Shown here: positions 2,365 to 48,132 of the stretch, in pieces
Position numbering within the stretch: position 1 is the stretch's first letter
How the letters are laid out: each line of letters starts with the position of its first letter
Assembly (NCBI GenBank): GCA_902543575.1
Contig: CACBYV010000004.1
Location: 47,558-111,557, forward strand
Direction of reading: 5' to 3'
Source of the DNA: an uncultured Pelagibacteraceae bacterium
GTDB taxonomy: Bacteria; Pseudomonadota; Alphaproteobacteria; Pelagibacterales; Pelagibacteraceae
Length of the DNA: 64,000 nt
Made by a program: the position numbers and the translations under genes
Notes under the pieces: generated by a model
The model's input: the letters and a program-made list of their open reading frames with translations, nothing else
What the model was told of the DNA's origin: nothing
The model's database searches: none

Positions 2365-4515
2365 TTATTTACCTATAGATATTAAGGTTAAGTCGTCACT
2401 TAGCTTTTTATCGCCAGCAGTATTAATTACCGTATTTGATATATCTGATAATTGTTTGCTAGAATCTGTGTTAAAATTCTGCTCTATTATTTTTAATGAT
2501 CCATCTATTCCTATTTCTTCACCTGAACTATTTAAGCTTTCAGATAAACCATCAGTAAATGCATAAAACCTGTTATTTTCTAGCTTAACTTTGTGAGTTG
2601 TATAGACCGATTTATCCTTTTGAAGTATTACGCCCATAGGTGGTGAATTACTCTCAAATTGTTCATAACTTCCGGATGATGATCTAATTATAGCTGGCTG
2701 ATGACCACCATTTACCCATCTTAATTCATCAGTCCTCATATTATATTCTCCCAATATACTAGTAACAAACATACCTCCAGTTTTAGTTAAAAATAGGTCA
2801 TTATTCATATGAAACATCATTTCATCTGGATCTACTTGATCTCTAGACATAATCTCAAATAAAGTTGATGCTTTTGCCATCACCATTCCAGCATGAATTC
2901 CTTTCCCCGCAACATCTGCAATAATGAAGTAAACACTATCATTATGAGGATAAAAGCTGAAGAAGTCTCCAGAAACTTCTCTAGCAGCAATATTAATTCC
3001 ATGCACTGGGTAATTTTCTAAATTTCTTTTTGGTAAAAAGTTTTCTTGGACTTTTACTGCAAGTTTTACTTCATTTGAAATTCTGTCTCTCCACACTTTC
3101 CTTTCGGCTTCACTGGTTTCTAGTTTGTTCATTAATCTATTATAATAAAGACCGATTACGCCCCCAGCGGTAAATGGATCTTGAGGGCCTCTGATTGTTA
3201 AATCACCAGACTCAGATTGTTTTTCTAAAATTGTAATTAAATCATGTTCTACAGAAGTTGCATTGTGTTCTGCAATATTAAGCCCTAGCTCTTCATGCAG
3301 TGGACTTACTCTCAATGGATAAATGTAATTTAAAATTTTTAATAAAATATATGAACCAAAAAATGAAAATACACCAATTGAAACAATTCCAATAAATTGT
3401 ACTTTAATTTGTTCTAGTCTAGATAGTCCTGTTCCTAAAATTTCAAGATCACTAAACAAACCTACAGCAATAGTGCCCCAAACACCTGCTGCCAAATGAA
3501 CAGGCACGGCACCAACAACATCATCTATTTCAAATTTATTTAAAAATTCATTTACAAAAATTGCAACTACCGCTCCAATAATTCCAACGAATATTGAAGT
3601 CACTGATGTCATAGAATTACATCCTGCTGTGATTGCAACTAATCCTGCGAGTGGTCCAAGAATTACATAATAAGGATCTGGTTTTTTAAATAATGCAAAT
3701 GAAATTCCAAGACCCGTCAGTAATCCAAAAGAAGCAGCAAGAAATGTATTTATTAAAATTAGAGGAACAGCTTCATCCATTGCACCATTACTTCCACCAT
3801 TAAATCCAAACCATCCAAACCATAAAATTAAAGTTCCCAAAACTGCCAGAGGGAAACTTGAGCCTGTAAATTTTCCTTTATTTGCATCTGAATATTTTCC
3901 TATTCTCGGACCTAAAATTAAAACAGCTGATAAAGCAATCCAACCACCTACAGAATGAACTATTGTGCTTCCAGCAAAATCAACAAATCCAATATCTGTC
4001 AACCATCCAGTTGTTTTAACTTGTCCAGTTACTGCAAGTAATTGTCTTGTAGCATCAATATTATTTAAATAACTAGATGACCATGCCCAATGTCCAACAA
4101 TTGGATATATAATTCCTGTAGCTATAATTGTAATTATTAAATATCCGTTAAATTTCATTCTTTCAGCAACAGCACCTGAAACAATTGTTGCTGCTGTTGC
4201 AACAAACATTGCTTGAAAGACAAAGTAAGTCATGTATTCAGCTTGATCGGTTTTAAAAAAGAATAAATCAGTTCCAAAATAACCATTAAAACTTTTTCCA
4301 AACATTAAACCGAAACCAAATAGCCAAAAAATTACAACTGCAAGACCAAAGTCAGCAGCATTTTTAAGAGCAACGTTAATGCTATTTTTGTGCCTTGAGA
4401 GACCTGTTTCCATACACATAAAACCTGCTTGCATAATGAAAACAAGAATTGCACAATCTATAACCCAAAGGGTATCAACAAATGATTTTACTGACTCCAG
4501 ATCAACACTCTCCAT
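2365..4515 (-). CDS. ammonium transporter (Amt) domain fused to a PP2C/SpoIIE (RsbU-type) serine phosphatase domain
   Basis: 716 aa. N-terminal ~410 aa carry Amt signatures (MQAGFMCMETG, DFAGSTIVHSVGGW, AVPVHLAAGVWG). C-terminal ~220 aa carry PP2C/SpoIIE signatures (SGDFFSFY, IADVAGKGIHAG, GGMFVTS, FTDGLSES, DDLTLISIGK). Single uninterrupted frame. Confidence 0.85.
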   Translation of the reverse strand: MESVDLESVKSFVDTLWVIDCAILVFIMQAGFMCMETGLSRHKNSINVALKNAADFGLAVVIFWLFGFGLMFGKSFNGYFGTDLFFFKTDQAEYMTYFVFQAMFVATAATIVSGAVAERMKFNGYLIITIIATGIIYPIVGHWAWSSSYLNNIDATRQLLAVTGQVKTTGWLTDIGFVDFAGSTIVHSVGGWIALSAVLILGPRIGKYSDANKGKFTGSSFPLAVLGTLILWFGWFGFNGGSNGAMDEAVPLILINTFLAASFGLLTGLGISFALFKKPDPYYVILGPLAGLVAITAGCNSMTSVTSIFVGIIGAVVAIFVNEFLNKFEIDDVVGAVPVHLAAGVWGTIAVGLFSDLEILGTGLSRLEQIKVQFIGIVSIGVFSFFGSYILLKILNYIYPLRVSPLHEELGLNIAEHNATSVEHDLITILEKQSESGDLTIRGPQDPFTAGGVIGLYYNRLMNKLETSEAERKVWRDRISNEVKLAVKVQENFLPKRNLENYPVHGINIAAREVSGDFFSFYPHNDSVYFIIADVAGKGIHAGMVMAKASTLFEIMSRDQVDPDEMMFHMNNDLFLTKTGGMFVTSILGEYNMRTDELRWVNGGHQPAIIRSSSGSYEQFESNSPPMGVILQKDKSVYTTHKVKLENNRFYAFTDGLSESLNSSGEEIGIDGSLKIIEQNFNTDSSKQLSDISNTVINTAGDKKLSDDLTLISIGK

Positions 4516-4578
4516 CTTTTCCTCTAAGTTATTATAAAAAAGTATACATCATAGATAATAGATGCTCAAAATAGGTTA

Positions 4579-4824
4579 TTATTCTTTTTTCTTCCAAATA
4601 TAATAGAATATATAAGGAGATACAGCTGGGACTATCCCAAACCAAAACCATTCGTCCCATCTAAAGCTTTTATCTAGCATTGGACTTTTTAATCCATTCC
4701 ACCATGTTAAATAACCAATTAGAATTATCCAAGCTAAACTTATAGTTAAATAAATTTGAAAGTTTTTTGGTAAACCTCCAGAAAAGACTACTTTTACTTT
4801 TTCTAAAATTTCTTGGTAATTCAT
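4579..4824 (-). CDS. small Trp-rich membrane protein, unknown function
   Basis: 81 aa with two hydrophobic helices (IYLTISLAWIILIGYL, WFWFGIVPAVSPYIFYYIW). Lies 7 nt downstream of the second pilin gene on the same strand. No recognisable family. Confidence 0.45.
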   Translation of the reverse strand: MNYQEILEKVKVVFSGGLPKNFQIYLTISLAWIILIGYLTWWNGLKSPMLDKSFRWDEWFWFGIVPAVSPYIFYYIWKKKE

Positions 4825-4831
4825 AAAATCT

Positions 4832-5245
4832 CTAACAATTAGTTCTTACAAAAGTACCAATTGCTGTCATTGTTATTTGACAACTTCCACCAGTTTCTTT
4901 TGCAAAGACTTTAAAATTTGTTGCATCATTAGCAATACAAAGCTCATATCCCATTTCTTGAGTAATACTATCCGTGCCACCCAATAAATTAGTTTCTATT
5001 GCTGTTGAAGTCGAAGATGTTGGTGAGCATGATGTGCCGGTGCTATTTCTATAATACATACCATTATCAGAATAGTACTCTGTTTGGCCTAATGAGATTT
5101 GTTGCATAACATTTTCGGCGGATCTTTTTTTTGCAGAACTTACATATCCATTGTAGCTAACAATGCCTACCGCAGCTATTATTCCCAAAATTGCAACAAC
5201 CACCAAAAGCTCAATGAGGGTGAACCCTGAGCTTTTGGAAGTCAT
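4832..5245 (-). CDS. type IV pilin-like protein (second pilin paralog)
   Basis: 137 aa. Class III signal MTSKSSG|FTLIELLVVVAILGIIAAVG with Glu at +5. Cys pairs in the C-terminal half. Confidence 0.85.
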   Translation of the reverse strand: MTSKSSGFTLIELLVVVAILGIIAAVGIVSYNGYVSSAKKRSAENVMQQISLGQTEYYSDNGMYYRNSTGTSCSPTSSTSTAIETNLLGGTDSITQEMGYELCIANDATNFKVFAKETGGSCQITMTAIGTFVRTNC

Positions 5246-5267
5246 AAAATTTTATTCAGATTAAAAA

Positions 5268-5738
5268 TTACTCAACAGTAATTGTTTTTTCTAAAACATT
5301 CCCTGAAGTTGAACATTCAGAATCTACTGTAAAGCAAGTCTTTACATCAATTGAAGTTGTCGAAGCTGCATTTAAATTAACATATCCACCAGTTCCAGTT
5401 GAAGTGCTACTTCTTACTGCCAAAGCACTAGTTGCGTATGGATTTTTAAAATCAGCGAAGGGTCCGTCAGTTGCTGTAGCTGCAGTAATAACTTTAGCTG
5501 CTGTCTTACCGCTGCAAGTTAATTTACCCCCCATAGCTGTGCTTTCACCTAAATTACATTTTTGTAATTCAGCAGAAATATATTTAACAACGTTTGCATG
5601 GGTTGATTTTGCTGCTTGTTTTTTAGCTCCTGATGTGTAGCCAGAGTATGCAACAACACCAACTGCTGCAAGAATACCGATAATTGCTACTACGACTAAT
5701 AATTCTATAAGTGTGAAACCTTTATTATTTTTTTTCAT
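5268..5738 (-). CDS. pilA: type IVa major pilin
   Basis: 156 aa. Leader MKKNNKG|FTLIELLVVVAIIGILAAVG with Glu+5. C-terminal Cys-x7-Cys loop (KTCFTVDSEC). First gene of the pilin pair. Confidence 0.85.
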   Translation of the reverse strand: MKKNNKGFTLIELLVVVAIIGILAAVGVVAYSGYTSGAKKQAAKSTHANVVKYISAELQKCNLGESTAMGGKLTCSGKTAAKVITAATATDGPFADFKNPYATSALAVRSSTSTGTGGYVNLNAASTTSIDVKTCFTVDSECSTSGNVLEKTITVE

Positions 5739-5764
5739 AAGTTAAGATCCTATAATTAATAAAA

Positions 5765-5780
5765 ATATGTGTATACATAT
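5765..5780. repeat. 16-nt near-perfect palindrome ATATGTGTATACATAT in the pilA / STAS divergent intergenic region
   Basis: Read directly: 7 of 8 mirrored pairs are complementary. Function (operator?) is unproven, and AT-rich palindromes are common by chance here. Confidence 0.5.
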
Positions 5781-5879
5781 AAATTATATCTTTTAAAAGG
5801 CAATATCTATACTGTAATAGTATTCAAAATGGGTCATTTTTGTTGATTTAGCAAGGAAATTTAATAAATATTAATATTT

Positions 5880-6179
5880 ATGTCATATAAAGTTACAGAA
5901 GAGGGCAACATATCAACGGTTCACCTAGATGGTGAAATAGATATGGACGTAACTGAAAAAGCAAAAGAGATAATAATGCCTTTAATTGAGGCAAAAAAAG
6001 AAGTTCATCTTAATTTAAAAGAAGTTCAATACATGGACTCGTCTGGAATATCAGTTTTAATTGAAAGTCACCAAAAAGCAACTGAACTTGGAACAAAAGT
6101 TATTCTGAAAGAGATAAGTAAATCAGTTTTAAAAGTAATTATGATGGCAAAATTAGAACAAATTTTAAACTTGGACTAA
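5880..6179 (+). CDS. STAS-domain anti-sigma-factor antagonist (RsbV/SpoIIAA-like)
   Basis: 99 aa. Conserved YMDSSGISVL motif; the phospho-acceptor-equivalent Ser54 codon is at 6039-6041. Immediately followed by an RsbW-like kinase gene. Confidence 0.85.
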   Translation: MSYKVTEEGNISTVHLDGEIDMDVTEKAKEIIMPLIEAKKEVHLNLKEVQYMDSSGISVLIESHQKATELGTKVILKEISKSVLKVIMMAKLEQILNLD

Positions 6180-6182
6180 TTA

Positions 6183-6614
6183 ATGAATGTAGCGATCAAA
6201 TCTATAAAAGAACAAAGGGATTTTGTAGTAAGTTCTTCGAGTTTGAAGCAGGTTAGATCATTCTCAAGAGAAGTATTTGAAAAAGTAAATATTGATCAAG
6301 ATTTAAAAGACGAGTTAGTTTTAGCTATTGCAGAGGCTGCACAAAATATTGTCAAACATGCATATCAAGGTGAAGATACAGATGACAAAATGGAGATTAA
6401 AATTTCATTAGAAAAAGGACATCTTGAGATTGGTTTTTTTGACAAAGGAAGACCCGTAGAAGAAAAAAATGTAAGACATAGAAAAATTGATGATATTAAA
6501 CCAGGTGGATTAGGAACTTTTTTTATTCAACAAATAATGGATGCAGTAGTTTTTAAAGAAGGTGAGAAGCCATGGATAAATCATTTAGTCTTAACTAAAA
6601 ATTTAAACTCTTAA
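6183..6614 (+). CDS. anti-sigma regulatory serine kinase (RsbW/SpoIIAB-like GHKL ATPase)
   Basis: 143 aa. N-box AEAAQNIVKHAY, G1-like FFDKGRP, G2 box KPGGLGTFFIQQIMD. 3-nt gap after the STAS gene. Confidence 0.8.
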   Translation: MNVAIKSIKEQRDFVVSSSSLKQVRSFSREVFEKVNIDQDLKDELVLAIAEAAQNIVKHAYQGEDTDDKMEIKISLEKGHLEIGFFDKGRPVEEKNVRHRKIDDIKPGGLGTFFIQQIMDAVVFKEGEKPWINHLVLTKNLNS

Positions 6615-7852
6615 CCGCCAATAATTGCACCAACATTAAAGATTGGTGAATACATGGCGATCATCAATCCACCAATCATTGTTCCCATAAATACAATCAT
6701 GATCGGTTCAATTAAGCTAGACATATTGTCTACCGCTGTATCAAATTCCTCTTCATAGTAAGAAGATACTGAAGTAAACATTTCATCTAAATTTCCTGTT
6801 TGCTCACCAACAGAAATTAGCTGACTGAAGGTAGGTGGAAAAACTGGTTCTTTTAAAAATAATTTTGTAAGTGTGTCTCCTGAAAAAACTCCTTTTTTAA
6901 CATTTTCTAATGCTTGAGTTACAACATCGTTATTACTTACTTGTTTAGCGATTTCTATACTTTCTAAAAGGTTTACCCCTGCTGCACTAAGATTACCCAT
7001 TATTAATGCAATTCTAGCAATCAATGATTTTAAAATCATATCGCCAAAAACTGGCATTTTTAAAACTCGTTGGTGCCACTTGTATCTAATTGTAGGAATT
7101 TTAGTTGTAGTATATTTAAATATAACAAAACCTATTATTGATACTATTCCGAGTGTTAGTCCACCAGCACCTCTCATAAAATTACTTGCATTCATAATGA
7201 CAGCTGTTGGGGTAGGTAATGCAACACCCATTCCCTCATACATTTCAGCAAAAACTGGAACAACTTTAATTAACATGAACACCATGACAGTTATCGCAAC
7301 CGTAAACATAACTACTGGATAGGTTAATGCACTTTTAATTTTCTTTTTAACTTTTTCTCTTTTTTCTAATGAATCTACTAATTTTAATAGGAAATCATCA
7401 AGTTTACCGCTGGCCTCTCCAGCTTTAATCAAATTTATATAAATATTATCAAATATCTTTGGATATTTTTCAAAACATTTAGAAAGAGTTATACCACCTT
7501 CTAAACTTTTTCTAATATCTTCAATAATTTCTTTCATAGTAGGGTGTTCTATTTGGTCTCTAAGCATCGTTAAAACATTTAAAATTGGCAAACCTGCTTT
7601 TACCATTGTTGCAAATTGCTTAGAGAAAAGCATTACATCTGCTGGAGTGACTTTTTTCTTACCAAAAGAAAAGCCACTTTTTTTGCCCTTTTCTTTTTCG
7701 GCTTTTTTCTTTTTAACTTTGATTAAGTTTGTAATTATTATTTTTTGTTCTTTAAGTTTAAAAGAGGCTTCTTCTTGATTTATAGCCTCTATTTCACCTT
7801 CAATATATTTACCTGCAGATATTCCTTTATAAGAAAAAGTTTCGGCTGACAT
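6611..7852 (-). CDS. pilC: type IV pilus platform protein PilC (GspF family)
   Basis: 413 aa. Duplicated GspF-type cytoplasmic domains with three TM segments, C-terminal EPIMIVFMGTMIGGLMIAMYSPIF motif. Adjacent to pilB. Confidence 0.9.
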   Translation of the reverse strand: MSAETFSYKGISAGKYIEGEIEAINQEEASFKLKEQKIIITNLIKVKKKKAEKEKGKKSGFSFGKKKVTPADVMLFSKQFATMVKAGLPILNVLTMLRDQIEHPTMKEIIEDIRKSLEGGITLSKCFEKYPKIFDNIYINLIKAGEASGKLDDFLLKLVDSLEKREKVKKKIKSALTYPVVMFTVAITVMVFMLIKVVPVFAEMYEGMGVALPTPTAVIMNASNFMRGAGGLTLGIVSIIGFVIFKYTTTKIPTIRYKWHQRVLKMPVFGDMILKSLIARIALIMGNLSAAGVNLLESIEIAKQVSNNDVVTQALENVKKGVFSGDTLTKLFLKEPVFPPTFSQLISVGEQTGNLDEMFTSVSSYYEEEFDTAVDNMSSLIEPIMIVFMGTMIGGLMIAMYSPIFNVGAIIGG

Positions 7853-7855
7853 TTG

Positions 7856-9604
7856 CTACTCCATAGAGAGAACTCTATCATACTCTCTAAAATTAAGATC
7901 ACCTGTTAGAATTAATTCTCTTCCCATATCTTGCATTGTCCTAAACCCTTCATTTGAAGCAATTTCTTTAAGCTCAGGGGTTGTTGCTTTTCTTAGGATT
8001 GCCTCTTTAATTGGTTTTGTAACATTTAAAATTTCATAAATACCCATTCTACCTTTATAGCCAGTATCTTTACATTTAGGACAGCCACTACCCTTTTGAA
8101 CTTTTGCCCTTGAAGCCTGTTCAACTGTAAATCCCAAATCAGCTAAAGCCTTAGGTGTTATGTCTTCATCTGGCACTCTACACTCTGAGCAGGTTTTTCT
8201 TGCTAATCTTTGTGCCAAAACAAGTGAAACGGCTGCACTAATCAAATAATCGGGTGTTCCCATGTTTTGTAACCTTGTAATGGTACTTGGTGCATCATTA
8301 GTGTGAAGTGTGCTAAATACCAAGTGACCTGTTAAGGCTGCTTTCAATCCAATATCAACTGTTTCTTTATCCCTCATCTCACCAACTAGAATTATTTCTG
8401 GGTCTTGTCTTAAAAAAGATCTCAGGGCAGTAGAAAAGTTAAAACCAATATCATCTTTAATTTGAACTTGTCCAACACCATCCAATTCATATTCGACAGG
8501 ATCTTCCGCAGTTAAAATATTTAGGTGAGGTTTAGAAACTTCTTTTAGAATACTATAAAGTGTTGTTGTTTTACCTGATCCAGTAGGACCTGTTACAAGA
8601 ACCAAACCTTGTGTTCCATGAATTGCTTTTCTTAAATTTTTTAGATCCGTTTCTTCAAAATTTAGTTGCTCTAAACTAATATCTCCAGCATCTTTATTAA
8701 GAACCCTCATTACTATTCTTTCATTAGTTGCTGTTGGTAAAATCGAAAGACGAAGATCAACTACTTTGCCATCAATTTTAAAAGGTATTGCTCCATCCTG
8801 AGGCAATCTTCTCTCAGCAATATCTAGCTTACCCATAATTTTAAATCTTGTAACTACAGCGCCATAATTTGAATGAAGAAATTTTTTGAAATGTTCTTGT
8901 TCTTGTAGAATTCCATCAAGTCTATATCTAACTCTTGAAGTAAATCTATATGGTTCAATATGAATATCAGATACTCCTGATTTAATTGCTTCTGCTACTA
9001 CAGCTGTACTAAATTTTATAACCTCAGATTCATTTTCAATAGCTTCAATATCTTCCTCAGGTGGTTTTTCTAAAACTTCAGCCTGTTCATCAACATCGTA
9101 GTCAAAAGTTTTTGTTTTTTCTGCATTTGTTTGTCTGATGTCAGATATAGTTCTTTCACCATCAGCTAAAAGTTTATCAACGAAACTGGAAATATCTGAA
9201 ACTTTAGCTGCATGAAGCTCAATATCCATTTTTGTTATAGTTCTCAAATTCCTCATCAAACTTAATTTGGAAATATCTGAGATTGCTATATGCAAAACTT
9301 TGCCTTCAATTTTAAAAGGCGCAATAAAATTCATATTAATATAATTAGAAGGAAGTACTGCTTTTAGCTCATCAGTTACCTCAACTTTTGATAAATCAAT
9401 CACATCTAAAGATTGATCTTTAACGAGAAGATCTAAAATCTTTTCTTCATCGGTCAAGTTTAGTTCGAAGACAGCATCTAACTGAGATTTTTCACCATCC
9501 CCTGATATCTTTTTAATCTCAGCTAAATCTTTTCCAGAAATAATATCTTGGTCAATTAAGATATTAATCAAGTTTATTTCAGATTCTCTACTTATATTAA
9601 TCAT
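7856..9604 (-). CDS. pilB: type IV pilus extension ATPase PilB (GspE family)
   Basis: 582 aa. N-terminal T2SSE_N-like domain, Walker A GPTGSGKTT, Walker B ILVGEMRD, His box LVFSTLHTND, tetracysteine CSEC...CPKC. Confidence 0.92.
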   Translation of the reverse strand: MINISRESEINLINILIDQDIISGKDLAEIKKISGDGEKSQLDAVFELNLTDEEKILDLLVKDQSLDVIDLSKVEVTDELKAVLPSNYINMNFIAPFKIEGKVLHIAISDISKLSLMRNLRTITKMDIELHAAKVSDISSFVDKLLADGERTISDIRQTNAEKTKTFDYDVDEQAEVLEKPPEEDIEAIENESEVIKFSTAVVAEAIKSGVSDIHIEPYRFTSRVRYRLDGILQEQEHFKKFLHSNYGAVVTRFKIMGKLDIAERRLPQDGAIPFKIDGKVVDLRLSILPTATNERIVMRVLNKDAGDISLEQLNFEETDLKNLRKAIHGTQGLVLVTGPTGSGKTTTLYSILKEVSKPHLNILTAEDPVEYELDGVGQVQIKDDIGFNFSTALRSFLRQDPEIILVGEMRDKETVDIGLKAALTGHLVFSTLHTNDAPSTITRLQNMGTPDYLISAAVSLVLAQRLARKTCSECRVPDEDITPKALADLGFTVEQASRAKVQKGSGCPKCKDTGYKGRMGIYEILNVTKPIKEAILRKATTPELKEIASNEGFRTMQDMGRELILTGDLNFREYDRVLSME

Positions 9605-11154
9605 TATAAAATTCTTGGTGCAATAAATACTAAAAGCTCATCTAGATTATCAGAGTTTGCTTTGCCTTTAAAGAGATTGCCTATCACAGGCATATTTCCT
9701 ATTGCAGGAACTTGATTTTTGTTATTTGCAATCACATTTTTCTTAATACCACCAATTACAACTATATCTCCATCTGCAACTAGTAATTTAGTTACAATTT
9801 CCATTTTATTAATCGGAGGTTCGTCAGATGAAGCTGTTCTATTTGGTGTATCGTTATTCACTTGAATAGTGAGTAGAACATTTCCATCACCAATGATACT
9901 CGGAGTTACTTCTAATTTTAAAGCCGCTTCTTTAAAAGAAGTTGATGTAGTCCCGTCAGATGTAGTTTGGTAAGGGATTTCCTCACCTTGAGTAACTGTT
10001 GCAACTTGATTATCTAAAGTAAATACCTTTGGATTTGAAATTGTTTTACCCATACCCATGCTTTCTAGTGCAGTAATCTCTGCTTTTAAAACTCCAGAGC
10101 CTGTTCTTCTTAAAATACCTATTCCACTTGTTGCTCCAGTTACTGGGAAATTAGACAATGTATCTGAAACACTACCTAATCCAGCACCATCTCCAGGAAC
10201 AGTTCCAAGCTCACTTCCTGAACTTGTACCCGCAACACCTCCTGCAATATTTCCAGCTCTATTATAATATCCACCAAGTCTAGCACCTAAAGCTCTTTCA
10301 AAATCTGAATTTGCTTCTACTATAAAAGCTTCAATTAAAACTTGTTTTGTTCTTATATCAATTTCTTTAATAACTTTATCAACAACATCTAAGTCTTTTT
10401 CCTTACCTCTTACTATAATTGATCTTGTAGTTACCTCTTCTGTTATTTGTATTGGCGTGTAAGAACTTTCTCCTGTAGTGGATGTAAATAATTCTTCAAT
10501 TGTAGATTTTGCTTGCTTCGGTGTTATATAATATAGTCTAAATATCTCTGAATATATTGGTTCAACACTGTCTTCTAATTCAACTTTCTTTTTTACAGCT
10601 TGTGCCCTTTCAGATTTATAAGTTTCTTGAGCGGTTAAAGTTTCTGGTGAGTGTACTCTTATTAAATTACTTGCAACATCCACATCAGATGCATAATTTT
10701 TCATATCTAACAAAGCCTGAAAGGCTTTATCCCATGGTACATCAATTAATTCTGCTGATATAGCCCCAGCTACTTCATCTCCAACTAAAACATTAATCTC
10801 TCCAATTTTACCCATTAATTTCATAGTTTCTTTATAATCTAAGTTCTTAAATTTAAGTGTTACTCTTTGTTTTAATAATGGGTAGTCGTCTGGAATAATT
10901 AAATAATTTCTTTGAGCTTCAGAAGATATTTTTTTTCTTTTGCCTAATTTTTTTCCATCTCCTTCAATTGGTTTAGGTCCCATTTCAAGAGTTTTTGATA
11001 TTTCTGATTGTCCTGATTTTACAACATCTTTATTTTTTATAAGAGGAACATTGTGTTTAAAAGGCTTGTCATATTTTTTCATATTTTGACATGCGTTAAG
11101 CACAAACAAAAATAAAACTAAACCAATATATGTAGATATTTTTTTAATAATCAT
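9604..11154 (-). CDS. pilQ: type IV pilus secretin PilQ (short form)
   Basis: 516 aa. Signal peptide ending VLNAC. Secretin core VLIEAFIVEA ... VPAIGNMPVIGNLFKG ... ELLVFIAPRIL. Confidence 0.88.
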   Translation of the reverse strand: MIIKKISTYIGLVLFLFVLNACQNMKKYDKPFKHNVPLIKNKDVVKSGQSEISKTLEMGPKPIEGDGKKLGKRKKISSEAQRNYLIIPDDYPLLKQRVTLKFKNLDYKETMKLMGKIGEINVLVGDEVAGAISAELIDVPWDKAFQALLDMKNYASDVDVASNLIRVHSPETLTAQETYKSERAQAVKKKVELEDSVEPIYSEIFRLYYITPKQAKSTIEELFTSTTGESSYTPIQITEEVTTRSIIVRGKEKDLDVVDKVIKEIDIRTKQVLIEAFIVEANSDFERALGARLGGYYNRAGNIAGGVAGTSSGSELGTVPGDGAGLGSVSDTLSNFPVTGATSGIGILRRTGSGVLKAEITALESMGMGKTISNPKVFTLDNQVATVTQGEEIPYQTTSDGTTSTSFKEAALKLEVTPSIIGDGNVLLTIQVNNDTPNRTASSDEPPINKMEIVTKLLVADGDIVVIGGIKKNVIANNKNQVPAIGNMPVIGNLFKGKANSDNLDELLVFIAPRIL

Positions 11155-11593
11155 CTGCCTCTCTTAATTGATTATTAAAATCAATAATCATATATTTACC
11201 ATCATCTTTTTTAAAGATAGCTTCTGTTAATCTTAAATCAACTAATTGAATTGGCCCTAAATATTGTCCAAGTGTAAGAGTTAAAACTTCTCCTCCAGAA
11301 TTAACTAATGAAATATAACTATGATCTTTACCTGAAATCAAACCTACTAATTTAAAATTATATAAGCTCAATTCATTTTCTTGCTCTTCTTCTGGTATAT
11401 TTCCTGACATCGAGCTAGTTCCTTCATTGCCAGCAAATGGATCATTTAAAGGAACTTCGTCTTCTTCTTGTAATTCTTTAGCGATTTCTTTTGCAGCGTC
11501 TAACACTTCTTGTTTTTGATCATGATTATCTGCAAAAGAAGTTTTCGATATTAAAAGAAATATTAATATGAATAATATTTTAGAAAAATTCAT
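11144..11593 (-). CDS. pilP: PilP-like pilus assembly protein
   Basis: 149 aa. Cleavable signal peptide (SKTSFA|DN), acidic linker, small C-terminal beta domain. Called mainly from its position between pilO and pilQ, with overlaps on both sides. Confidence 0.5.
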   Translation of the reverse strand: MNFSKILFILIFLLISKTSFADNHDQKQEVLDAAKEIAKELQEEDEVPLNDPFAGNEGTSSMSGNIPEEEQENELSLYNFKLVGLISGKDHSYISLVNSGGEVLTLTLGQYLGPIQLVDLRLTEAIFKKDDGKYMIIDFNNQLREADDY

Positions 11594-12218
11594 TTGGTAA
11601 ACCTACAATTGTTAATTCTCCAGTTGCAACTATCGCTCCAGTTGAATCGTTTTGTACTACACTTATAGTCTCTTTGTCAAAATTTAACATTTTATTCTGT
11701 CTAGACACTGCTCTTTTAAACTTAATGTAACCTAAGAAATTTCCCTTAATTTCATAATCTACTGGAATTTTGTAGTACGAGACCATTTCTTTTGTCAGAT
11801 TATTTTCTGCTTGATCTGTGACCCCGCCTTTTAAGACTGGTTTTGGTTTTTTCTTTTCAATTTTAGAAATCACAAGACCATTTACTGCAGCGTATTTACT
11901 AAGGCTCTGATATAGATCTTCAACTTCAGCTTTTGAATGAAATAAAGTTGATGTTTTTTCAAAGTCAGGTTTCATTTTTTTAATTCTTGCTTTGAAAGTA
12001 ATTATCTCATTTTCAAATTGTGCAATTTCATTTTGCTTTAAAATTTTATCATTATATTTTGCTTTTCTTTCTTTAACCATCGGATTTAAAATGATGTAAT
12101 AAATAATTAAAAATAATATGATTGCTCCAAAACCAGAGCCGAATTTAATTAAAGTTTTCTTTTCAACAGAAGCTAGCTTCTGTTTTAAATCATCCATTGT
12201 AATATTTTTTAAATCCAT
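11580..12218 (-). CDS. pilO: PilO-like pilus assembly protein
   Basis: Single N-terminal TM (FGAIILFLIIYYIIL), coiled coil, C-terminal domain. I prefer the ATG at 12218, which forms a TAATG overlap with the pilMN stop. The ORF track extends to a TTG at 12239. Confidence 0.6.
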   Translation of the reverse strand: MDLKNITMDDLKQKLASVEKKTLIKFGSGFGAIILFLIIYYIILNPMVKERKAKYNDKILKQNEIAQFENEIITFKARIKKMKPDFEKTSTLFHSKAEVEDLYQSLSKYAAVNGLVISKIEKKKPKPVLKGGVTDQAENNLTKEMVSYYKIPVDYEIKGNFLGYIKFKRAVSRQNKMLNFDKETISVVQNDSTGAIVATGELTIVGLPNEFF

Positions 12219-13936
12219 TAAACGCTCTCCAATACACAAGCTATTTTAAAGCCCTTCATAGTTTGCGAATTTTGCTGTTCATTAGGTAATGTCATGCTCG
12301 CTAAAGATGCTTGCGATATAAGCTTCTTATTATTTAAATTACTAATGAGTTTTAAAATGTCTTGATCGCTAAATGCTGATCCTTCGATTATAACTAGGTC
12401 TGCCCCATTATATTCTATAGACTTAAACTTAACTCTTTTAGGTACTGCTGATGCAATTTGAGCCAAAACTCTGAAACTTACAGTTTTATTTGACTTAATT
12501 GATTTGCTAAGTTGCAAAGATTTTAAAATAATTCCAATTTCTTTAGCATACTTATTTTTCTCTAAAGTTTTTAATTCATGAGTTTGGACAATTTCATCGT
12601 AATCGACAATTTTTTTATTTAAATCAGTTATTTGCCAAAAAGCGAAACCAAAAAGTACAATGTATATAACTGCAACAATTCCAACAACTCCTTTGAAAGC
12701 AAAATTTGAAAAAGCTTTTGCCTTTTTTTGCGCAATCATATTTTCTCTATTAGGTAATAAGTTTATATTCTTAACTGCGGTTACAAATTTATAGTATCCA
12801 AATACATCAAGTTTTCTAAATGCCAATCCCATCACAGTTGAAAAATATGAACGATTGTCAATTTTTACATCGTTTTCTAATTGAGCAGGAATTTTAATTC
12901 CTTCAAATGGATCAAATAAATTATATCCTGTATTGACCATATTTTTTCTAAAGCTGCCTAAATAGTCTTCTACATTTTGCAAATTAGATACTACTTTTAA
13001 GTTTCTAATCCTTTTTTCATATTTCTGTTCAAAATCCTGCACAGCTTGTTTAACTTGAGTCATGTATCTTCTTACTAAAGCGTCCATTTCCTCTTGGTTA
13101 TTACTTTCTTGGAGTGTTTTTCTATCCTGTGATCTTATAAAAATATCCGTTATGATTGGATTGTTCTCATATAGTATCATTACATAATTCTCATCTAGAC
13201 CAAATTCCAAAACTGCTGTTAAATTAGAATCTTCAATGGATCCTGCAATTTGATTAATTTGATCTACTGCAGATTTTAGTGCAAAACATTTAACATCAAT
13301 AATTACTGCATTAAGCCCACCTTTTTTAATAATATCTGTGTAGCTATTTATGTCTGATAGCTTTGAAGCTACAAATAAAATATCCATAGTATTTCCAGTT
13401 TTGTCTCTATTAATTACTTGATGAAAAATTGAATAATCATTTAAATTATCAGTTAACTGAACTAAATTTTCCCATAGTGAGTCTGTATCTATTGCTTTTT
13501 TTAATTCTTCATCAGTCATTAAAGGTGCGGTAACTACTCTTATAATTGCACTAGTGACTGGAATTGCTATTGCAGCATTTGTTGTTGTAATTTTCGATTT
13601 TTGTAAGGCTAATTTTAATTCATCAGCGACTTTATCTGGATTTTCTAAAACTGTTCCATTTTCAGGTAAGCCTTCAAATTTATGTACATAAAATCTATCT
13701 AATACCCATTGATTAGCCTTGTTACTTGAAACTTGTGATAATCTTATTTCATTAGATGTTAATTCAACACCTAAAATCTCTTCTCCTTTTATAGCTTGCT
13801 TGCCTAGCCTCTTTTTTAAAAATTTATCAAAAAATCCCTCTTTCTTCTTTTTGCCATCAGCTGCCTGAGGAACTGGAGGTGTATTGCCCTGTTCCTTACT
13901 TTTCTTTTTGAATAGGTTTGCAAAAGGATTTTTCAT
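12218..13936 (-). CDS. pilM: PilM-PilN fusion protein
   Basis: 572 aa. Actin-like PilM region starts at about aa 53 (ILGVELTSNEIRL). The PilN signature INLLP (aa 391-395, nt 12766-12752) is followed by the TM helix GVVGIVAVIYIVLFGFAFW and a PilN-like periplasmic part. Confidence 0.8.
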   Translation of the reverse strand: MKNPFANLFKKKSKEQGNTPPVPQAADGKKKKEGFFDKFLKKRLGKQAIKGEEILGVELTSNEIRLSQVSSNKANQWVLDRFYVHKFEGLPENGTVLENPDKVADELKLALQKSKITTTNAAIAIPVTSAIIRVVTAPLMTDEELKKAIDTDSLWENLVQLTDNLNDYSIFHQVINRDKTGNTMDILFVASKLSDINSYTDIIKKGGLNAVIIDVKCFALKSAVDQINQIAGSIEDSNLTAVLEFGLDENYVMILYENNPIITDIFIRSQDRKTLQESNNQEEMDALVRRYMTQVKQAVQDFEQKYEKRIRNLKVVSNLQNVEDYLGSFRKNMVNTGYNLFDPFEGIKIPAQLENDVKIDNRSYFSTVMGLAFRKLDVFGYYKFVTAVKNINLLPNRENMIAQKKAKAFSNFAFKGVVGIVAVIYIVLFGFAFWQITDLNKKIVDYDEIVQTHELKTLEKNKYAKEIGIILKSLQLSKSIKSNKTVSFRVLAQIASAVPKRVKFKSIEYNGADLVIIEGSAFSDQDILKLISNLNNKKLISQASLASMTLPNEQQNSQTMKGFKIACVLESV

Positions 13937-14061
13937 AATTTTTTTTCTAGATTTTAACTATATACTCAACTTTTACTAGAATAAAAACTTAGTTATCCAG
14001 TTTGGGGCATTTAGTAAAATTAATTGATAAATTATGTATAATTTATAGTAAATATATAAAT

Positions 14062-15078
14062 ATGTTTGAAAAGTTAGAAGAGCTTGCAAAAAATAATAAA
14101 AAAATATCTGATTTCCACATTAGATCGGGCTCCCCATTAGCCTATAGGCAAACAGGTGAAATTATAAAAGTCGAAGAAGTTAAGGTAACAGCTCAAGATT
14201 TAAAAGATTTATTGTCTATGAATTGTAATGAGCATGAGCTTAATAAGTTTGATAAAACACATGAACTTGATACCTCGGTTACATTAAGTGGACTAAGATT
14301 TAGGGCAAATTTTTATAAAACTATAAATGGGCCTGCATGCGTTTGTAGAAGAGTAGAAAGTAAAATTCCTGATATGGATCAGTTTAACTTACCACAATCT
14401 TTATATGATATTGTAGATTTTCATAAAGGCTTGGTTTTGGTCACAGGCCCAACTGGATCTGGAAAATCCACTACACTTGCAGCAATTGTAAATGAAATTA
14501 ATAAAACACGAACAGCAAATATTATAACTGTCGAGGATCCAGTAGAATTTATTCATAAAGATATTAAAAGTATTATTTCACATCGAGAAGTTGGAAAACA
14601 AACTGAAACTTTTGCTGCTGCATTGAAAGCTGCTTTAAGAGAAGATCCCGATGTAATTTTAGTTGGAGAAATGCGAGACCTTGAAACTATAAGTTTAGCA
14701 TTAACTGCTGCTGAAACAGGTCACTTAGTTTTTGGAACATTACACACTAGTGGAGCTCCAAGCACTATAAACAGAATAATTGATGTATTTCCACCTGAGC
14801 AACAAGAACAGATTAGAGCACAAATTTCTACATCTTTAAAAATGGTTGTTACTCAAAGATTACTTAAAACAAGAGATGGGATGGGTAGAGTTGGCGCATT
14901 TGAAATAATGAAATGCACAGCCCCAATTCAAAACTTAATAAGAGAAGCAAAAATTCACCAAATTCCAAGTATTATGCAAACAGCTGTTAGAGAAGGAATG
15001 ATTACTATGGAAAAATCTCTTGAAGAATTAGCAAAATCTGGGAAGATAGATCCCGGTGCAGCAAGATCAGAACATTAA
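14062..15078 (+). CDS. pilT: twitching-motility retraction ATPase PilT
   Basis: Walker A GPTGSGKST, ILVGEMRD, LVFGTLHTSGA, PilT-specific PIQNLIREAKIHQI. ATG at 14062 preferred; the ORF track begins at a TTG at 14002. Confidence 0.92.
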   Translation: MFEKLEELAKNNKKISDFHIRSGSPLAYRQTGEIIKVEEVKVTAQDLKDLLSMNCNEHELNKFDKTHELDTSVTLSGLRFRANFYKTINGPACVCRRVESKIPDMDQFNLPQSLYDIVDFHKGLVLVTGPTGSGKSTTLAAIVNEINKTRTANIITVEDPVEFIHKDIKSIISHREVGKQTETFAAALKAALREDPDVILVGEMRDLETISLALTAAETGHLVFGTLHTSGAPSTINRIIDVFPPEQQEQIRAQISTSLKMVVTQRLLKTRDGMGRVGAFEIMKCTAPIQNLIREAKIHQIPSIMQTAVREGMITMEKSLEELAKSGKIDPGAARSEH

Positions 15079-15706
15079 AGGTTTTACTATTTTAGAATTG
15101 CTAGTTGTTATAACAATTGTAGCAATTGTATCAGCTATTGGTTATCCAAATTTTATGAAGTGGAGAGAAGATAGAGAGATACGTGCTGCAATGGAGTCAG
15201 CAGCAACAATGTTATCTTCAATTAATAATTTATCACAAAGAGGCAATTTCCCTTTTGTTCAATTAAAAATTACACCTAATGGAACAACTAATACAACAAT
15301 AACAAGTAAAGGTATGAATGTTAAAACTTTATCTACAAGATTAAATAGTGGGAGTGTAATTGACTGCAATTTAACAAATAGTGGTTATTGGGATAATCAT
15401 TTGGTAGATAAAACCACAAAAGATGTATCAACACATATTAATGCTGAGGGCTCAGTTTGTTTTTCGCAGGATGGCACTCATTACAAAACTTTAGGTAAAT
15501 TAAATTCAAATGTAAATGTTACTGTAGAAGGTAGGATTACTAATCAATATTTAATCATTTGTTCAACATCTAATGCATCAGGCAGTGGCAAATGTCCCAC
15601 CAATCAGGCAGACGGTTTGAAACAACCCGCATATTTGGTAGAGTGGACAAGATTTGGTAACATAAGCAAATTTAAATGGAGTGGTAGTGGTTGGAATAGA
15701 CAATAA
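15056..15706 (+). CDS. minor pilin, FimT/GspH-like
   Basis: 216 aa. GTG start, prepilin leader MQQDQNIKG|FTILELLVVITIVAIV with Glu+5. First of four consecutive prepilin-like genes after pilT. Confidence 0.7.
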   Translation: MQQDQNIKGFTILELLVVITIVAIVSAIGYPNFMKWREDREIRAAMESAATMLSSINNLSQRGNFPFVQLKITPNGTTNTTITSKGMNVKTLSTRLNSGSVIDCNLTNSGYWDNHLVDKTTKDVSTHINAEGSVCFSQDGTHYKTLGKLNSNVNVTVEGRITNQYLIICSTSNASGSGKCPTNQADGLKQPAYLVEWTRFGNISKFKWSGSGWNRQ

Positions 15707-16277
15707 AATTAAAAAATGCGAAAAGGGAATGACATTGCTTGAGGCACTTGTCTCAACTGCAATAATAGGAATTGGTTTTGTTGCTGTTTTTCAAATGGTA
15801 AACTATTCAGTCCAATCTATAGATGTGTCTGGTGAAAGAACAAAAGCTAATTATTTAGTTTCAATGGTAGCAGAGGATCTTATTTCAGAAAAAGAGTCTA
15901 ATTCTCCGACAAAAGACGTCAAATTCATGGATTACTTATTAAGTAATAAGACTAGCTCAAATTCATCATGGAGAATGGGATCATGTTCATCGGGATCGAG
16001 TACCACAGGAAATTTTACTAATGCTGCTCAAAATAAATTTAAAAAGTGGGATGATCGTTTCTCGACGCGGAGAATTAAATGTAAAGGAGCACAAGATATA
16101 AAATATCTAAAAGTTTTTGATATTTGCAACAATAATGCCAGTGGGAATAATTGCACTTACAATAATACAAGAAATTATAACGGCACAGGAATATATGAAA
16201 AATGGATTGTTGGAAAAATGGAGGTCAATCTTAATAGTGGTAAAAAGAAAAAGTTTTTATATTTCCAGATTGATTAA
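15681..16277 (+). CDS. pilV: minor pilin, PilV-like
   Basis: 198 aa. Leader ...KKCEKG|MTLLEALVSTAIIGIGFVAV with Glu+5. Exact start uncertain (GTG at 15681). Confidence 0.6.
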   Translation: MVVVGIDNKIKKCEKGMTLLEALVSTAIIGIGFVAVFQMVNYSVQSIDVSGERTKANYLVSMVAEDLISEKESNSPTKDVKFMDYLLSNKTSSNSSWRMGSCSSGSSTTGNFTNAAQNKFKKWDDRFSTRRIKCKGAQDIKYLKVFDICNNNASGNNCTYNNTRNYNGTGIYEKWIVGKMEVNLNSGKKKKFLYFQID

Positions 16278-17116
16278 TGAAAAAAAAATTATCTAATATT
16301 GCTGGTGTTACATTAATTGAAATTCTTATTGGGATATTGATTTCAGTAATAATGATGGGAGCAATGTTCACATCTTATACTGTAGTAAACAACACGTACT
16401 CTCAAGTTACTGATCGAGCAAAAATTTCAACTGCTGGAAGAGACGTTGTTGGAATGATTATGAGAGATGTTAGAAACGCTGGTTTTAAATATTTTGGAGA
16501 TAATATTAAAACAACTAATGCTCATGCTCCAATTCTCATTACCAAAAGCTCAAATTTCAATACAAGCTGTGATAAAATAGATATTGTCTATGGTGGTGTG
16601 AATTATAATGCCACTAGAAATCCTAAATATCAGTATGAAAGATTTAAAGTAACTTACGAATGTAAAGCTTCAACAATTCCAGATAAAACTTCACCTAAAC
16701 TAAGTGGTGGCGGTTATCCACCAATAAAAGCTTTTGCAATTTATAAAACTAAAGTTAAATGGAATAACACCTCGAATAGTTGGGATAATCCATCAACTGA
16801 TGGAAATGATGCAACTTATCCATCACAGTTGATAGTAGATTATATAGTTGATTTAATATTTAATCCAATTGATGAAACTGGGGTTTTAATAAGCCCTCCT
16901 CCAACTCCCACAAATTCCAACAAAGATAAATTATATAAAATTAAAACTATTGATATCGCAATGACAGTAAGATCAACGAAAGATTTTTTTAGAACATCTA
17001 AAGTTAGAAAAGTATTAGCGATGATTGATAAAAAAAGAGACAAATCAAAAACCGATAAATATTTAAGAGATACTATTGTAGTAACGGCTCATGCTAGAAA
17101 TTTAGGATTAGAATAA
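16277..17116 (+). CDS. pilW: minor pilin, PilW-like
   Basis: 279 aa. Leader MKKKLSNIAG|VTLIEILIGILISVIMM with Glu+5. ATGA-type overlap with the previous gene. Confidence 0.6.
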   Translation: MKKKLSNIAGVTLIEILIGILISVIMMGAMFTSYTVVNNTYSQVTDRAKISTAGRDVVGMIMRDVRNAGFKYFGDNIKTTNAHAPILITKSSNFNTSCDKIDIVYGGVNYNATRNPKYQYERFKVTYECKASTIPDKTSPKLSGGGYPPIKAFAIYKTKVKWNNTSNSWDNPSTDGNDATYPSQLIVDYIVDLIFNPIDETGVLISPPPTPTNSNKDKLYKIKTIDIAMTVRSTKDFFRTSKVRKVLAMIDKKRDKSKTDKYLRDTIVVTAHARNLGLE

Positions 17117-17790
17117 TGAAAAAAAACGAACAAGGATTTGCATTAGTATTATCATTAGTTTTGATGTTAGCAATGTCGTTAATGGGTGGGGCTTTAATTG
17201 TTATTTCAGCAGGAGATCACCGTAGCAATAATAAGAGTGATGAATACCAGCAAACTTTCTATGTCGCAGAAACAGCTTTGATTGAGGGTGAAAAATATGT
17301 TCTTAATAAATTTTTAGGACCTTGGAATACATCTAACCATAAAAGAGATACTTCAAAAAGAGCTTTGCCAGCAAATCAAACTTCTGTTTGGAACGGCGCA
17401 ATGACAAAAAAAAATTATACAACAAGTGACAGCTTCTATTTTAATACTAGTACAAATTGTTATCAAAGTTTCTCAGAAATAGACAAAAGTACTCTTAAAG
17501 TTGTTGCATCCGAAAGTTGGAATTTTGGAAAAGTCTTAAGAGATAGTTTTAATACTAATGCATCAAACCAGGAAAAAACTGAAGCTGAGAGATTGCAGTC
17601 TTATTATTACGAGTTTTTTATATCGAGAATTGGAGCCGCACCTTTTAGAGGATACGGATCAAGCGTTAAAAAAGGCGCTACAGACAAAGGAAACGATGGA
17701 ATGGCCTATAGAGTTTATGGTTGTGGTATAAAAAAAGATGATGACAGAATGATTGTGGCACTAGAGAGCACTATTGTTCTTCCAAAATAA
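17116..17790 (+). CDS. pilX: minor pilin-like protein, PilX-like
   Basis: 224 aa. N-terminus MKKNEQG|FALVLSLVLMLAMSLMGGALIV, lacking Glu+5 as is typical of PilX_N. Position precedes pilY1. Confidence 0.55.
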   Translation: MKKNEQGFALVLSLVLMLAMSLMGGALIVISAGDHRSNNKSDEYQQTFYVAETALIEGEKYVLNKFLGPWNTSNHKRDTSKRALPANQTSVWNGAMTKKNYTTSDSFYFNTSTNCYQSFSEIDKSTLKVVASESWNFGKVLRDSFNTNASNQEKTEAERLQSYYYEFFISRIGAAPFRGYGSSVKKGATDKGNDGMAYRVYGCGIKKDDDRMIVALESTIVLPK

Positions 17791-17853
17791 TTTATAATAA
17801 TAAATTAATTTTGAGACAAAAATAAAGGTATAATGTATTAATTATAACTAATT

Positions 17854-22499: not shown

Positions 22500-22511
22500 T
22501 CATTAAAAATA

Positions 22512-28772: not shown

Positions 28773-28784
28773 AAATTTAAATGA

Positions 28785-47813: not shown

Positions 47814-47855
47814 GAATAATTTATTGAATCTATTGAATTTGGTTTTATATTATTA

Positions 47856-48115: not shown

Positions 48116-48132
48116 AAAAAAATATTTGTTTT

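Follow-up and report, generated by a model that had tools for sequence, protein, structure and literature searches.

A putative partner-switching module with sensor phosphatases in the type IV pilus cluster of a Pelagibacteraceae genome

What is controlled by a serine kinase of the anti-sigma-factor fold when its gene, together with that of its apparent switch protein, lies among the genes of a type IV pilus and no sigma factor gene is found nearby? This question is raised by a 64,000-nucleotide stretch of DNA from an uncultured Pelagibacteraceae bacterium of the SAR11 group (contig CACBYV010000004.1, positions 47,558 to 111,557; hereafter the window), in which a STAS gene and a kinase gene stand in tandem within a pilus cluster spanning 4.6-29.5 kb. 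Members of SAR11 form the most abundant group of heterotrophs in the surface ocean and possess very few regulators. An earlier note made from the letters of the window (the original prediction) had described the two genes as an orphan pair; this description does not hold, as two genes for SpoIIE-type PP2C phosphatases belong to the same cluster (2365-4515 and 29718-31007) and bracket the pair. Since these phosphatases supply the input side, the subject becomes a module and no longer a pair. On balance we lean towards the view that the two genes form the core of a complete partner-switching module within the pilus cluster, which would receive ammonium and GAF inputs and whose output would be other than a sigma factor, probably the type IV pilus. 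The parts of this proposal differ in strength: that STAS protein, kinase and PP2C make up a complete three-component module is very probable, ammonium as one of the inputs is likely from the residues of the receptor module, and the type IV pilus as output, which we infer from gene neighbourhood, is an evenly balanced call.

Components of the module

Four genes are considered to make up the module (coordinates are those of the window):

5880-6179, + strand: STAS switch protein of the anti-sigma-antagonist type, 99 residues, recognised by Pfam and NCBIfam, phospho-acceptor Ser54
6183-6614, + strand: serine kinase (GHKL) of the SpoIIAB/RsbW fold, 143 residues, single domain, starting 3 nt past the STAS stop codon
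2365-4515, - strand: Amt-PP2C fusion, 716 residues, with Amt at 17-420, a linker and SpoIIE/PP2C at 526-714; 1.4 kb from the STAS gene
29718-31007, + strand: GAF-PP2C, 429 residues, with GAF at 37-180 and SpoIIE/PP2C at 242-427; divergent from pilD, at the opposite end of the cluster

The product of the first gene matched the Pfam STAS model (E=2.6e-16, 59.7 bits for a cut-off of 22.6) and passed the cut-off of TIGR00377 in NCBIfam (71.3 versus 53.45 bits). It remained under the threshold of the SpoIIAA equivalog model (49.4 versus 114.75), and its match to MlaB was weak (1.2e-05, under the NCBIfam cut-off). The serine codon tcg at 6039-6041 encodes Ser54 within a YMDSSG motif, which aligned with the phospho-serine motifs of RsbV (YMDSTG) and SpoIIAA (FMDSSG); open reading frames (ORFs), Pfam and this alignment thus agree with what the original prediction had said of the protein and of its Ser54 codon. 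The DSSG motif was retained by every STAS relative examined. We assign the protein to the anti-sigma-antagonist family, of which the release of a sigma factor from the kinase would be the family role, here presumed by analogy.

For the second gene, the predicted GHKL kinase was borne out by Pfam (HATPase_c_2, E=2.8e-20), by structural matches and by its nucleotide-binding boxes. Its sole sequence match in the PDB was RsbW (6M36). An AlphaFold2 model of the kinase (predicted local distance difference test score, pLDDT, 86.4; predicted template modelling score, pTM, 0.82) was compared with known structures using Foldseek; SpoIIAB came first (1L0O/1TH8, TM 0.77-0.80, E 5e-10), followed by RsbW (6M37) and UsfX. 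Residues E51, N55 and H59 of the N-box, D87 of G1 and G108-G111 of G2, plus R25, were invariant in a 15-sequence family alignment covering 27-70% identity. Judged by their sequences, the STAS protein and the kinase are a real switch-protein/kinase pair, and they are not a product of chance: relatives occur in 168 species-level genomes and among >6000 database proteins. In some SAR11-like metagenome contigs the two are joined into single STAS-kinase proteins of 243-244 residues (P0118, P0120), and kinase variants of 191 residues (P0002, for example) are read through the stop codon into the antisense strand of pilC. Both could be true fusions, or artefacts of assembly or sequencing.

Every classical partner switch has a PP2C phosphatase of the SpoIIE type as its third component. 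The Amt-PP2C protein matched Ammonium_transp (2.7e-111) and SpoIIE (2.2e-34) in Pfam, and its catalytic Asp motifs are intact (SGDF, DVAGKG, TDG and DDLT). GAF-PP2C matched SpoIIE (3e-42) and GAF_2 (1.5e-10); its metal-binding residues D233, D251, D369 and D419 were invariant in 7 sequences, as were the motifs SGD, DVSGKG, GH, TDG and D-D-L-T across GAF-, Amt- and CHASE2-linked relatives. We propose GAF-PP2C as the core input phosphatase, for which dephosphorylation of the STAS protein is predicted from gene context and family precedent.

The Amt module resembles receptors rather than transporters. Its closest solved relatives were the receptors Sd-Amt1 (8QJ3/8QJ4/8QPF, 1e-115) and Ks-Amt5 (6EU6, 1e-85), entries whose identity was checked in PMC11152129, whereas matches to the transporters Af-Amt1 (1e-43) and AmtB (4e-30) were much weaker. 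The ligand residues of the N1/N2 sites of Sd-Amt1 (Q22, E29, N45, D48, T104 and S107) are the signature of the ammonium-receptor class (PMC11152129), and all six are identical in the alignment of Amt-PP2C (Q29, E36, N52, D55, T110 and S113). The module is probably of the ammonium-receptor type, with NH4+ binding predicted at N1/N2. The linker that leads to the C-terminal PP2C transducer gave no Pfam HAMP match at E<=0.01; for the 716-residue protein described as Amt-GI5, a HAMP-like linker was reported from an AlphaFold model (PMC11796062). In that study Amt-GI5, an Amt domain with a PPM phosphatase domain, was considered a probable ammonium sensor confined to SAR11, and neither a cognate transducer nor another PPM domain was found for it. 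GAF-PP2C and the STAS-kinase pair contradict both statements for the genome studied here.

The central phosphorylation step is documented in HTCC1062, whose phosphoproteome comprises 1014 Ser, Thr and Tyr sites on 555 proteins (PMC13198564). The orthologue of the kinase, SAR11_0057, was detected in the proteome and is reported as the only Ser/Thr kinase of this organism; the same report states that no protein phosphatase is known, which is contradicted by GAF-PP2C. In its supplementary phosphopeptide table the phosphate of the STAS orthologue AAZ20881 (SAR11_0056) is localised in vivo to S54, so that the phosphorylation of Ser54, for which the original prediction had suggested an assay, is already answered for the orthologue. 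The corresponding DSSG peptide NVALNLSNVQYMDSSGISVLIESHQK was identified in 1199 peptide-spectrum matches (PSMs), compared with 1-81 for those neighbouring entries that are shown. The same supplement also places phosphate on S54/S55 of a second STAS paralogue, AAZ20880; HTCC1062 thus encodes two tandem STAS paralogues (SAR11_0055/0056), each phosphorylated at its DSSG serine, and one kinase. Accessions were matched to locus tags as AAZ(20825 + locus number), a rule that was checked with kinase and pilin peptides and is valid for this region only. The S54 site of the orthologue is strong support for the kinase-STAS phosphorylation step. The supplement also lists sites on the kinase itself (S2, S76), on PilB (T543) and on the pilin (T97/T99); as the 555 phosphoproteins represent ~40% of all proteins, the sites on PilB and pilin are uninformative.

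Taken in sequence, the RsbW-like kinase would be the enzyme that transfers phosphate from ATP to Ser54 of the STAS protein, and the two SpoIIE-type PP2Cs would remove this phosphate, as expected from family precedent and from their intact active sites. One of them would be gated by the Amt receptor module upon binding of NH4+ at N1/N2, the other by its GAF domain. Unphosphorylated STAS protein would bind the kinase, upon which one of the two proteins would exchange partners. The output would concern the type IV pilus, through a component of its machine or through its expression, and gene neighbourhood makes us favour direct action on the ATPases PilB/PilT, on PilC or on PilM.

Conservation in Pelagibacteraceae and in distant relatives

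Relatives of the kinase were collected from 168 species-representative genomes, and the neighbourhoods of the best 80, all from Pelagibacteraceae and 76-99% identical, were compared. All 80 loci displayed the same order, with the second pilin gene, pilA, the divergent STAS and kinase genes, and then the convergent pilC, pilB and pilQ. The original prediction had left room for a linkage to pil genes peculiar to this genome, which these loci and the distant relatives found beside pil genes exclude. The Amt-PP2C gene adjoins the pilins in 59 of the 65 related loci with enough upstream flank: it is present as one copy in 34 and as two copies in tandem, with a small HMA-like ORF, in 25. Where it is missing (L065, L069, L078-L080), the pair is still linked to pil genes. 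For GAF-PP2C, 444 relatives were confirmed in metagenome contigs, and pilD was the divergent neighbour in 68/68 of the loci with enough flank, the opposite flank being variable.

In the 25 tandem arrangements the paralogues, of 745 and 716 residues, are split by a 120-residue secreted ORF with an HMA-like CxxC motif (positions 3521-8328 of L014; also L017, L020 and others). Similar small HMA-like ORFs lie near the module in L082 (11181-11552) and L087 (18-356).

With the kinase as query, an initial protein search yielded SAR11 proteins that were all near-identical, and distant relatives were reached by a search of 50%-identity representatives and two follow-ups. When 1.84 billion cluster representatives were searched with the kinase, identity dropped from 65% to about 42%. 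Gene contexts taken from either side of this gap showed several orders. In L084 and L085, where the kinase is 70% identical, the gene order of the window is kept and genes for a CHASE2-PP2C, a FecR-like protein and a TPR protein are added between Amt-PP2C and the pilins. In L086 and L087 (kinase 37% identical) pilD and a 331-residue ORF are divergent from the STAS-kinase pair, which converges on a PilT-like ATPase gene followed by a CHASE2-PP2C gene; transglutaminase (Transglut_core) and MoxR genes are near (L086). L082 and L083 (36% identical) carry the kinase alongside a PilT-like ATPase, a CHASE2-PP2C and a FecR-like gene, and no STAS gene was called in these two loci. Finally, L088, L089 and L172 (42% identical) display a pilin, pilD, Amt-PP2C, a bactofilin, a second PP2C, two pilins, and a STAS gene divergent from the kinase; their Amt-PP2C is 53% identical to that of the window over its full length. 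The association of the kinase with a sensor PP2C and pil genes thus persists through at least four gene orders, in three of which a STAS gene was called.

CHASE2-PP2C genes accompanied by FecR-domain and TPR or unknown proteins were seen beside the kinase in AT-rich marine lineages (3650-8334 of L084; L082, L083, L086 and L087). CHASE2-PP2C is a third sensor type for the STAS-kinase switch.

Two GC-rich relatives have another setting. In L090 (Myxococcota-like, 6706-11936) an operon of GAF-PP2C, kinase and STAS genes lies directly 5' of MlaE-MlaF-MlaD, which indicates that these three components form one operon elsewhere; the GAF-PP2C proteins of L090 and of the window are 39% identical over 411 residues. 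In L091, from an alphaproteobacterial metagenome-assembled genome (1-3387), kinase and STAS genes are found directly 5' of the same three genes. The Mla context indicates that the module family attaches to non-sigma machinery, and suggests a phospho-regulated MlaB-like STAS protein in these relatives.

Output of the module

No Pfam match to sigma-factor families was obtained among all ORFs of at least 90 residues in the window, and tblastn with HTCC1062 RpoH, a search that could miss very divergent extracytoplasmic function (ECF) sigma factors, returned nothing at E<=1 in the window and 172 related loci (173 sequences, 2.1 Mb). The statement of the original prediction that the window lacks a sigma factor gene was therefore upheld. 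A dedicated sigma gene next to orthologous pairs would have pointed elsewhere; in related loci the 10 kb around the pair yielded no gene of the sigma-70 family, either by RpoH tblastn, with the same reservation for divergent ECF sigma factors, or, for the distant loci, by precomputed Pfam calls. As no sigma factor gene accompanies the module, its output is most likely not a dedicated sigma factor. All the components for a sigma-less partner switch placed in the locus that it controls are present: STAS protein, kinase and PP2C are encoded in the type IV pilus cluster, with no dedicated sigma factor. Of the outputs offered by the original prediction, binding to a pilus component, as a candidate output, gained support from comparative genomics.

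The Bacillus systems RsbU/RsbP-RsbV-RsbW-sigmaB and SpoIIE-SpoIIAA-SpoIIAB-sigmaF employ the same three protein families, with STAS and kinase genes adjacent and co-directional. They differ from the module in that here no sigma gene is found in the operon or in the 64 kb, the kinase scores under the equivalog cut-offs, and the phosphatases are unlinked from the pair, bear Amt or GAF sensors and belong to a type IV pilus cluster. Other partner switches have non-sigma outputs, such as BtrU-BtrV-BtrW in the type III secretion locus of Bordetella, SypE-SypA in the syp locus of Vibrio fischeri and HptB-HsbR-HsbA in Pseudomonas. RbaV/W/Y of Rhodobacter (PMC3999984) also belongs to this group (see also the review PMC8256260). 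As here, STAS, kinase and PP2C genes in these systems lie beside the envelope machine or polysaccharide locus that is controlled, and their action is post-transcriptional or sigma-independent. Their outputs were defined experimentally, whereas that of the module is predicted from gene neighbourhood, and none of them resides in a type IV pilus locus or includes an ammonium-receptor phosphatase. Lastly, MlaB-MlaF offers a precedent for a STAS protein that acts on the ATPase of an envelope machine. The cluster of the window holds no Mla genes, and an MlaB-like action of the STAS protein on the PilB or PilT ATPases is a speculation by analogy.

On the input side, Ks-Amt5 (an Amt-histidine kinase, PMC5764959) and Sd-Amt1 (an Amt-HAMP-diguanylate cyclase, PMC11152129) share with Amt-PP2C a C-terminal cytoplasmic transducer. 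In Amt-PP2C the transducer is a phosphatase, a type that the main text of PMC11152129 does not mention, and its proposed partner is a STAS/kinase switch, unlike the response regulator or cyclic di-GMP signalling downstream of Ks-Amt5 and Sd-Amt1. The searchable literature contained no description of an Amt-PP2C receptor tied to a STAS/kinase switch, nor of a partner switch inside a type IV pilus cluster.

Several observations weigh against the proposal that the module takes ammonium as an input and acts on the pilus. The output is deduced from gene neighbourhood, and adjacency is a weaker signal in a streamlined genome. In the GC-rich relatives the module lies beside MlaEFD and not beside pil genes, which indicates that the family does not have one fixed output. 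The kinase scored under the equivalog cut-offs for RsbW (NF003144, 51.9 versus 145 bits) and SpoIIAB (TIGR01925, 30.3 versus 135 bits), and is thus a member of the wider family and an orthologue of neither. A global role, too, would be in keeping with a single Ser/Thr kinase and with the extreme abundance of the STAS phosphopeptide. The ammonium input faces objections of its own: Amt-PP2C is absent from the pilin-side site in 6 of the 65 loci, Amt-GI5 was reported in only 6/64 gMED single-amplified genomes (PMC11796062), and the abundance of the Amt-PP2C paralogues of HTCC1062 is unchanged under nitrogen limitation, an observation that is silent on their activity. Moreover, the pilin side corresponds to hypervariable region 1 (HVR1), which Wilhelm et al. 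2007 delineated as SAR11_0049 and 0050 (Amt), 0051, 0052, and 0053 and 0054 (pilins). Amt-PP2C could be island cargo in this region of assorted genes.

Two other explanations deserve consideration, and we regard both as improbable. In a Chlamydia-like switch the kinase would sequester sigma-70 or sigma-32, the only two sigma factors known in SAR11, and unphosphorylated STAS protein would free the sigma factor; the system would tune global transcription, and its location among pil genes would be historical. The fold of the kinase is that of SpoIIAB/RsbW, and the structures that it matches best are those of anti-sigma factors bound to sigma F or to their antagonists. The lack of a dedicated sigma factor gene near the pair, the two STAS paralogues that share one kinase in HTCC1062 (compare RsbV1/RsbV2) and the high abundance of phosphorylated STAS protein, which suits a global regulator, are all consistent with this scheme. 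The Rsb system of Chlamydia trachomatis (RsbU, RsbV1/RsbV2, RsbW; PMC4552016 and PMC11619594) resembles the module in belonging to a reduced genome with very few sigma factors, in having no dedicated target sigma and in its membrane-bound sensor PP2C. It is not located in a pilus or secretion locus, however, and RsbU senses metabolites by a periplasmic domain and not by an Amt domain. Its target is reported as sigma-66; nothing in the window supports such a target for the module. A Chlamydia-like switch gives no reason why kinase and PP2C should stay with pil genes through four gene orders and at kinase identities as low as 36%, and leaves unexplained why each sensor PP2C sits beside pilD or pilins. 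The attachment of relatives to Mla transporter operons, a non-sigma context, also speaks against it, as do the scores of the kinase, which fall short of the equivalog cut-offs for both RsbW and SpoIIAB.

The other explanation, to which we give the same low credence, is a nitrogen-status module in which Amt-PP2C, STAS protein and kinase control nitrogen assimilation or transport in place of PII/NtrBC, their proximity to pil genes resulting from a hypervariable hot spot. SAR11 lacks PII, GlnD and NtrBC, and its response to nitrogen limitation, which takes place without PII (PMC3870248), is largely post-transcriptional. The ammonium-receptor signature of the Amt module and the location of Amt-PP2C in HVR1, or island GI-5, agree with this explanation. 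The pair and GAF-PP2C, however, lie on the conserved part of the pil cluster and outside the variable island, and both remain linked to pil genes without Amt-PP2C (L065, L069, L078-L080) or where the sensor is CHASE2 and not Amt. Furthermore, the conserved neighbours include no nitrogen-assimilation gene.

A broad-specificity Ser/Thr kinase, for which many of the ~1000 phospho-sites of HTCC1062 would be targets and the STAS protein one substrate among others, would account for a single reported Ser/Thr kinase facing 1014 sites on 555 proteins and for the sites on PilB (T543), pilin (T97/T99) and the kinase itself (S2, S76), but it is very unlikely, since kinases of the SpoIIAB/RsbW family are highly specific for their STAS partner, the 1199 PSMs of the DSSG peptide against 1-81 for neighbouring sites suit one dominant substrate, and sites on pilus proteins mean little when ~40% of proteins carry some.

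We retain as the preferred reading a partner switch that would act on the pilus without a dedicated sigma factor. In its most specific form, which is tentative and rather unlikely as a whole, the SAR11 Amt-receptor phosphatase would sense external ammonium and set the phosphorylation state of the STAS protein, and the STAS protein or the kinase would directly gate PilB/PilT or PilC, nitrogen status thereby switching uptake of DNA or nutrients post-translationally. Type IV pilus genes are present in some SAR11 and absent from others, and an independent proposal suggests that the pili serve DNA uptake where water is poor in nitrogen (PMC12789548).

The component proteins are ordinary members of well-known families, and both sigma-less partner switches embedded in a locus and Amt receptors with kinase or cyclase transducers are already known. 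What the locus brings is a connection between proteins hitherto treated separately, as Amt-GI5 (PMC11796062) and RsbW/SAR11_0057 (PMC13198564) are the same proteins as those described here. It joins three published statements: a sole kinase with no phosphatase (PMC13198564), an Amt-GI5 with no partner (PMC11796062) and a nitrogen response without PII (PMC3870248). Two of these papers, both from 2025, explicitly call partners missing, and the locus supplies the "missing" phosphatases. The module may link nitrogen sensing to the pilus in SAR11; it provides a concrete route, open to testing, by which ammonium could lead to a cellular output, and a candidate regulator for SAR11 pili. If the proposal is true, the module would be the first partner switch to control type IV pili, and no signalling route downstream of an Amt-PP2C receptor would have been defined before it. 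The Amt-receptor class would gain a PP2C/partner-switch branch, and type IV pili would join the machines under sigma-less partner switches.

Organisation of the pilus cluster

The genes that surround the module are as follows:

4579-4824, - strand: 81-residue Trp-rich predicted membrane protein, no Pfam or NCBIfam match; SAR11_0052 ("unknown") in HTCC1062
4832-5245, - strand: second pilin (pseudopilin/ComP-like), Pfam N_methyl 9.9e-09; ComP_DUS 2.5e-05, under cut-off
5268-5738, - strand: major pilin pilA, Pfam N_methyl 1.4e-10; divergent from the STAS gene
5739-5879, no strand: divergent intergenic region between pilA and the STAS gene, 141 bp
6611-7852, - strand: pilC, Pfam T2SSF; convergent on the kinase gene
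7856-9604, - strand: pilB with an MshEN domain, Pfam T2SSE and MshEN
9604-11154, - strand: pilQ secretin, Pfam Secretin
11144-29549, both strands: remainder of the type IV pilus cluster by Pfam and NCBIfam, including a 149-residue ORF, pilO-like, pilM-pilN, pilT, minor pilins and PilY1-like genes
12218-13936, - strand: pilM-pilN fusion, one protein of 572 residues with PilM_2 at 56-261 and PilN at 489-568
14002-15078, + strand: pilT, by Pfam/NCBIfam
17854-25109, + strand: three ORFs 3' of the minor pilins, of 184, 1363 and 865 residues
25098-28772, - strand: TgpA-like transglutaminase (630 residues), a 305-residue ORF with no Pfam match and a MoxR AAA+ ATPase, next to pilD
28785-29549, - strand: pilD prepilin peptidase, by Pfam/NCBIfam

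The junctions on both sides of the pair are exactly as the original prediction had placed them: pilA is divergent across the 141 bp, and the stop codon TAA of the kinase (6612-6614) overlaps the complement of the pilC stop codon (6611-6613). In one SAR11 subgroup (L061-L071) a 97-residue lipoprotein-like ORF is inserted between kinase and pilC, at about 10420-10713 on the - strand, so that the two stop codons no longer overlap as they do in the window.

Alignment of 63 distinct intergenic sequences revealed conserved blocks, including TTTTTGTTGATTT...AATAAATATTA (about 5838-5873) just 5' of the STAS start. Its TTGATT...AATATT elements may resemble a -35/-10 pair and make it a weak promoter candidate. 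A scan of 4400-6900 with consensus promoters and terminators flagged no + strand promoter before the STAS gene, and promoter-like matches were fewer than in shuffled sequences; the assignment of a STAS promoter is weak for this reason.

The pilin gene pilA is hypervariable, with 45-100% identity between loci. In the related loci whose upstream flank is long enough, and also in L084 and L085, the 81-residue ORF invariably separates Amt-PP2C from the pilins. Among the three ORFs downstream of the minor pilins, the 184-residue product has no family match, the 1363-residue PilY1-like protein matches the PilY1 propeller over a short segment only, and the 865-residue protein has no Pfam or NCBIfam match. 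A stretch of ~3.5 kb with no listed ORFs in L140 was considered as a possible peculiarity and rejected, as it corresponds to a large ORF running off the end of the locus.

For region 4 (HVR4) of HTCC1062, Wilhelm et al. 2007 also listed a further phosphatase ("phosphatase, sigB regulator") in the interval separating two pilin genes. This "sigB-regulator phosphatase" adjoins a globin gene there (SAR11_1216-1219). Farther along the window, an alphaproteobacterial tmRNA of the permuted, two-piece type (Rfam RF01849, 229 bits; tag ANESYALAA) was identified at 47820-48218, followed by a convergent tRNA-Leu(GAG).

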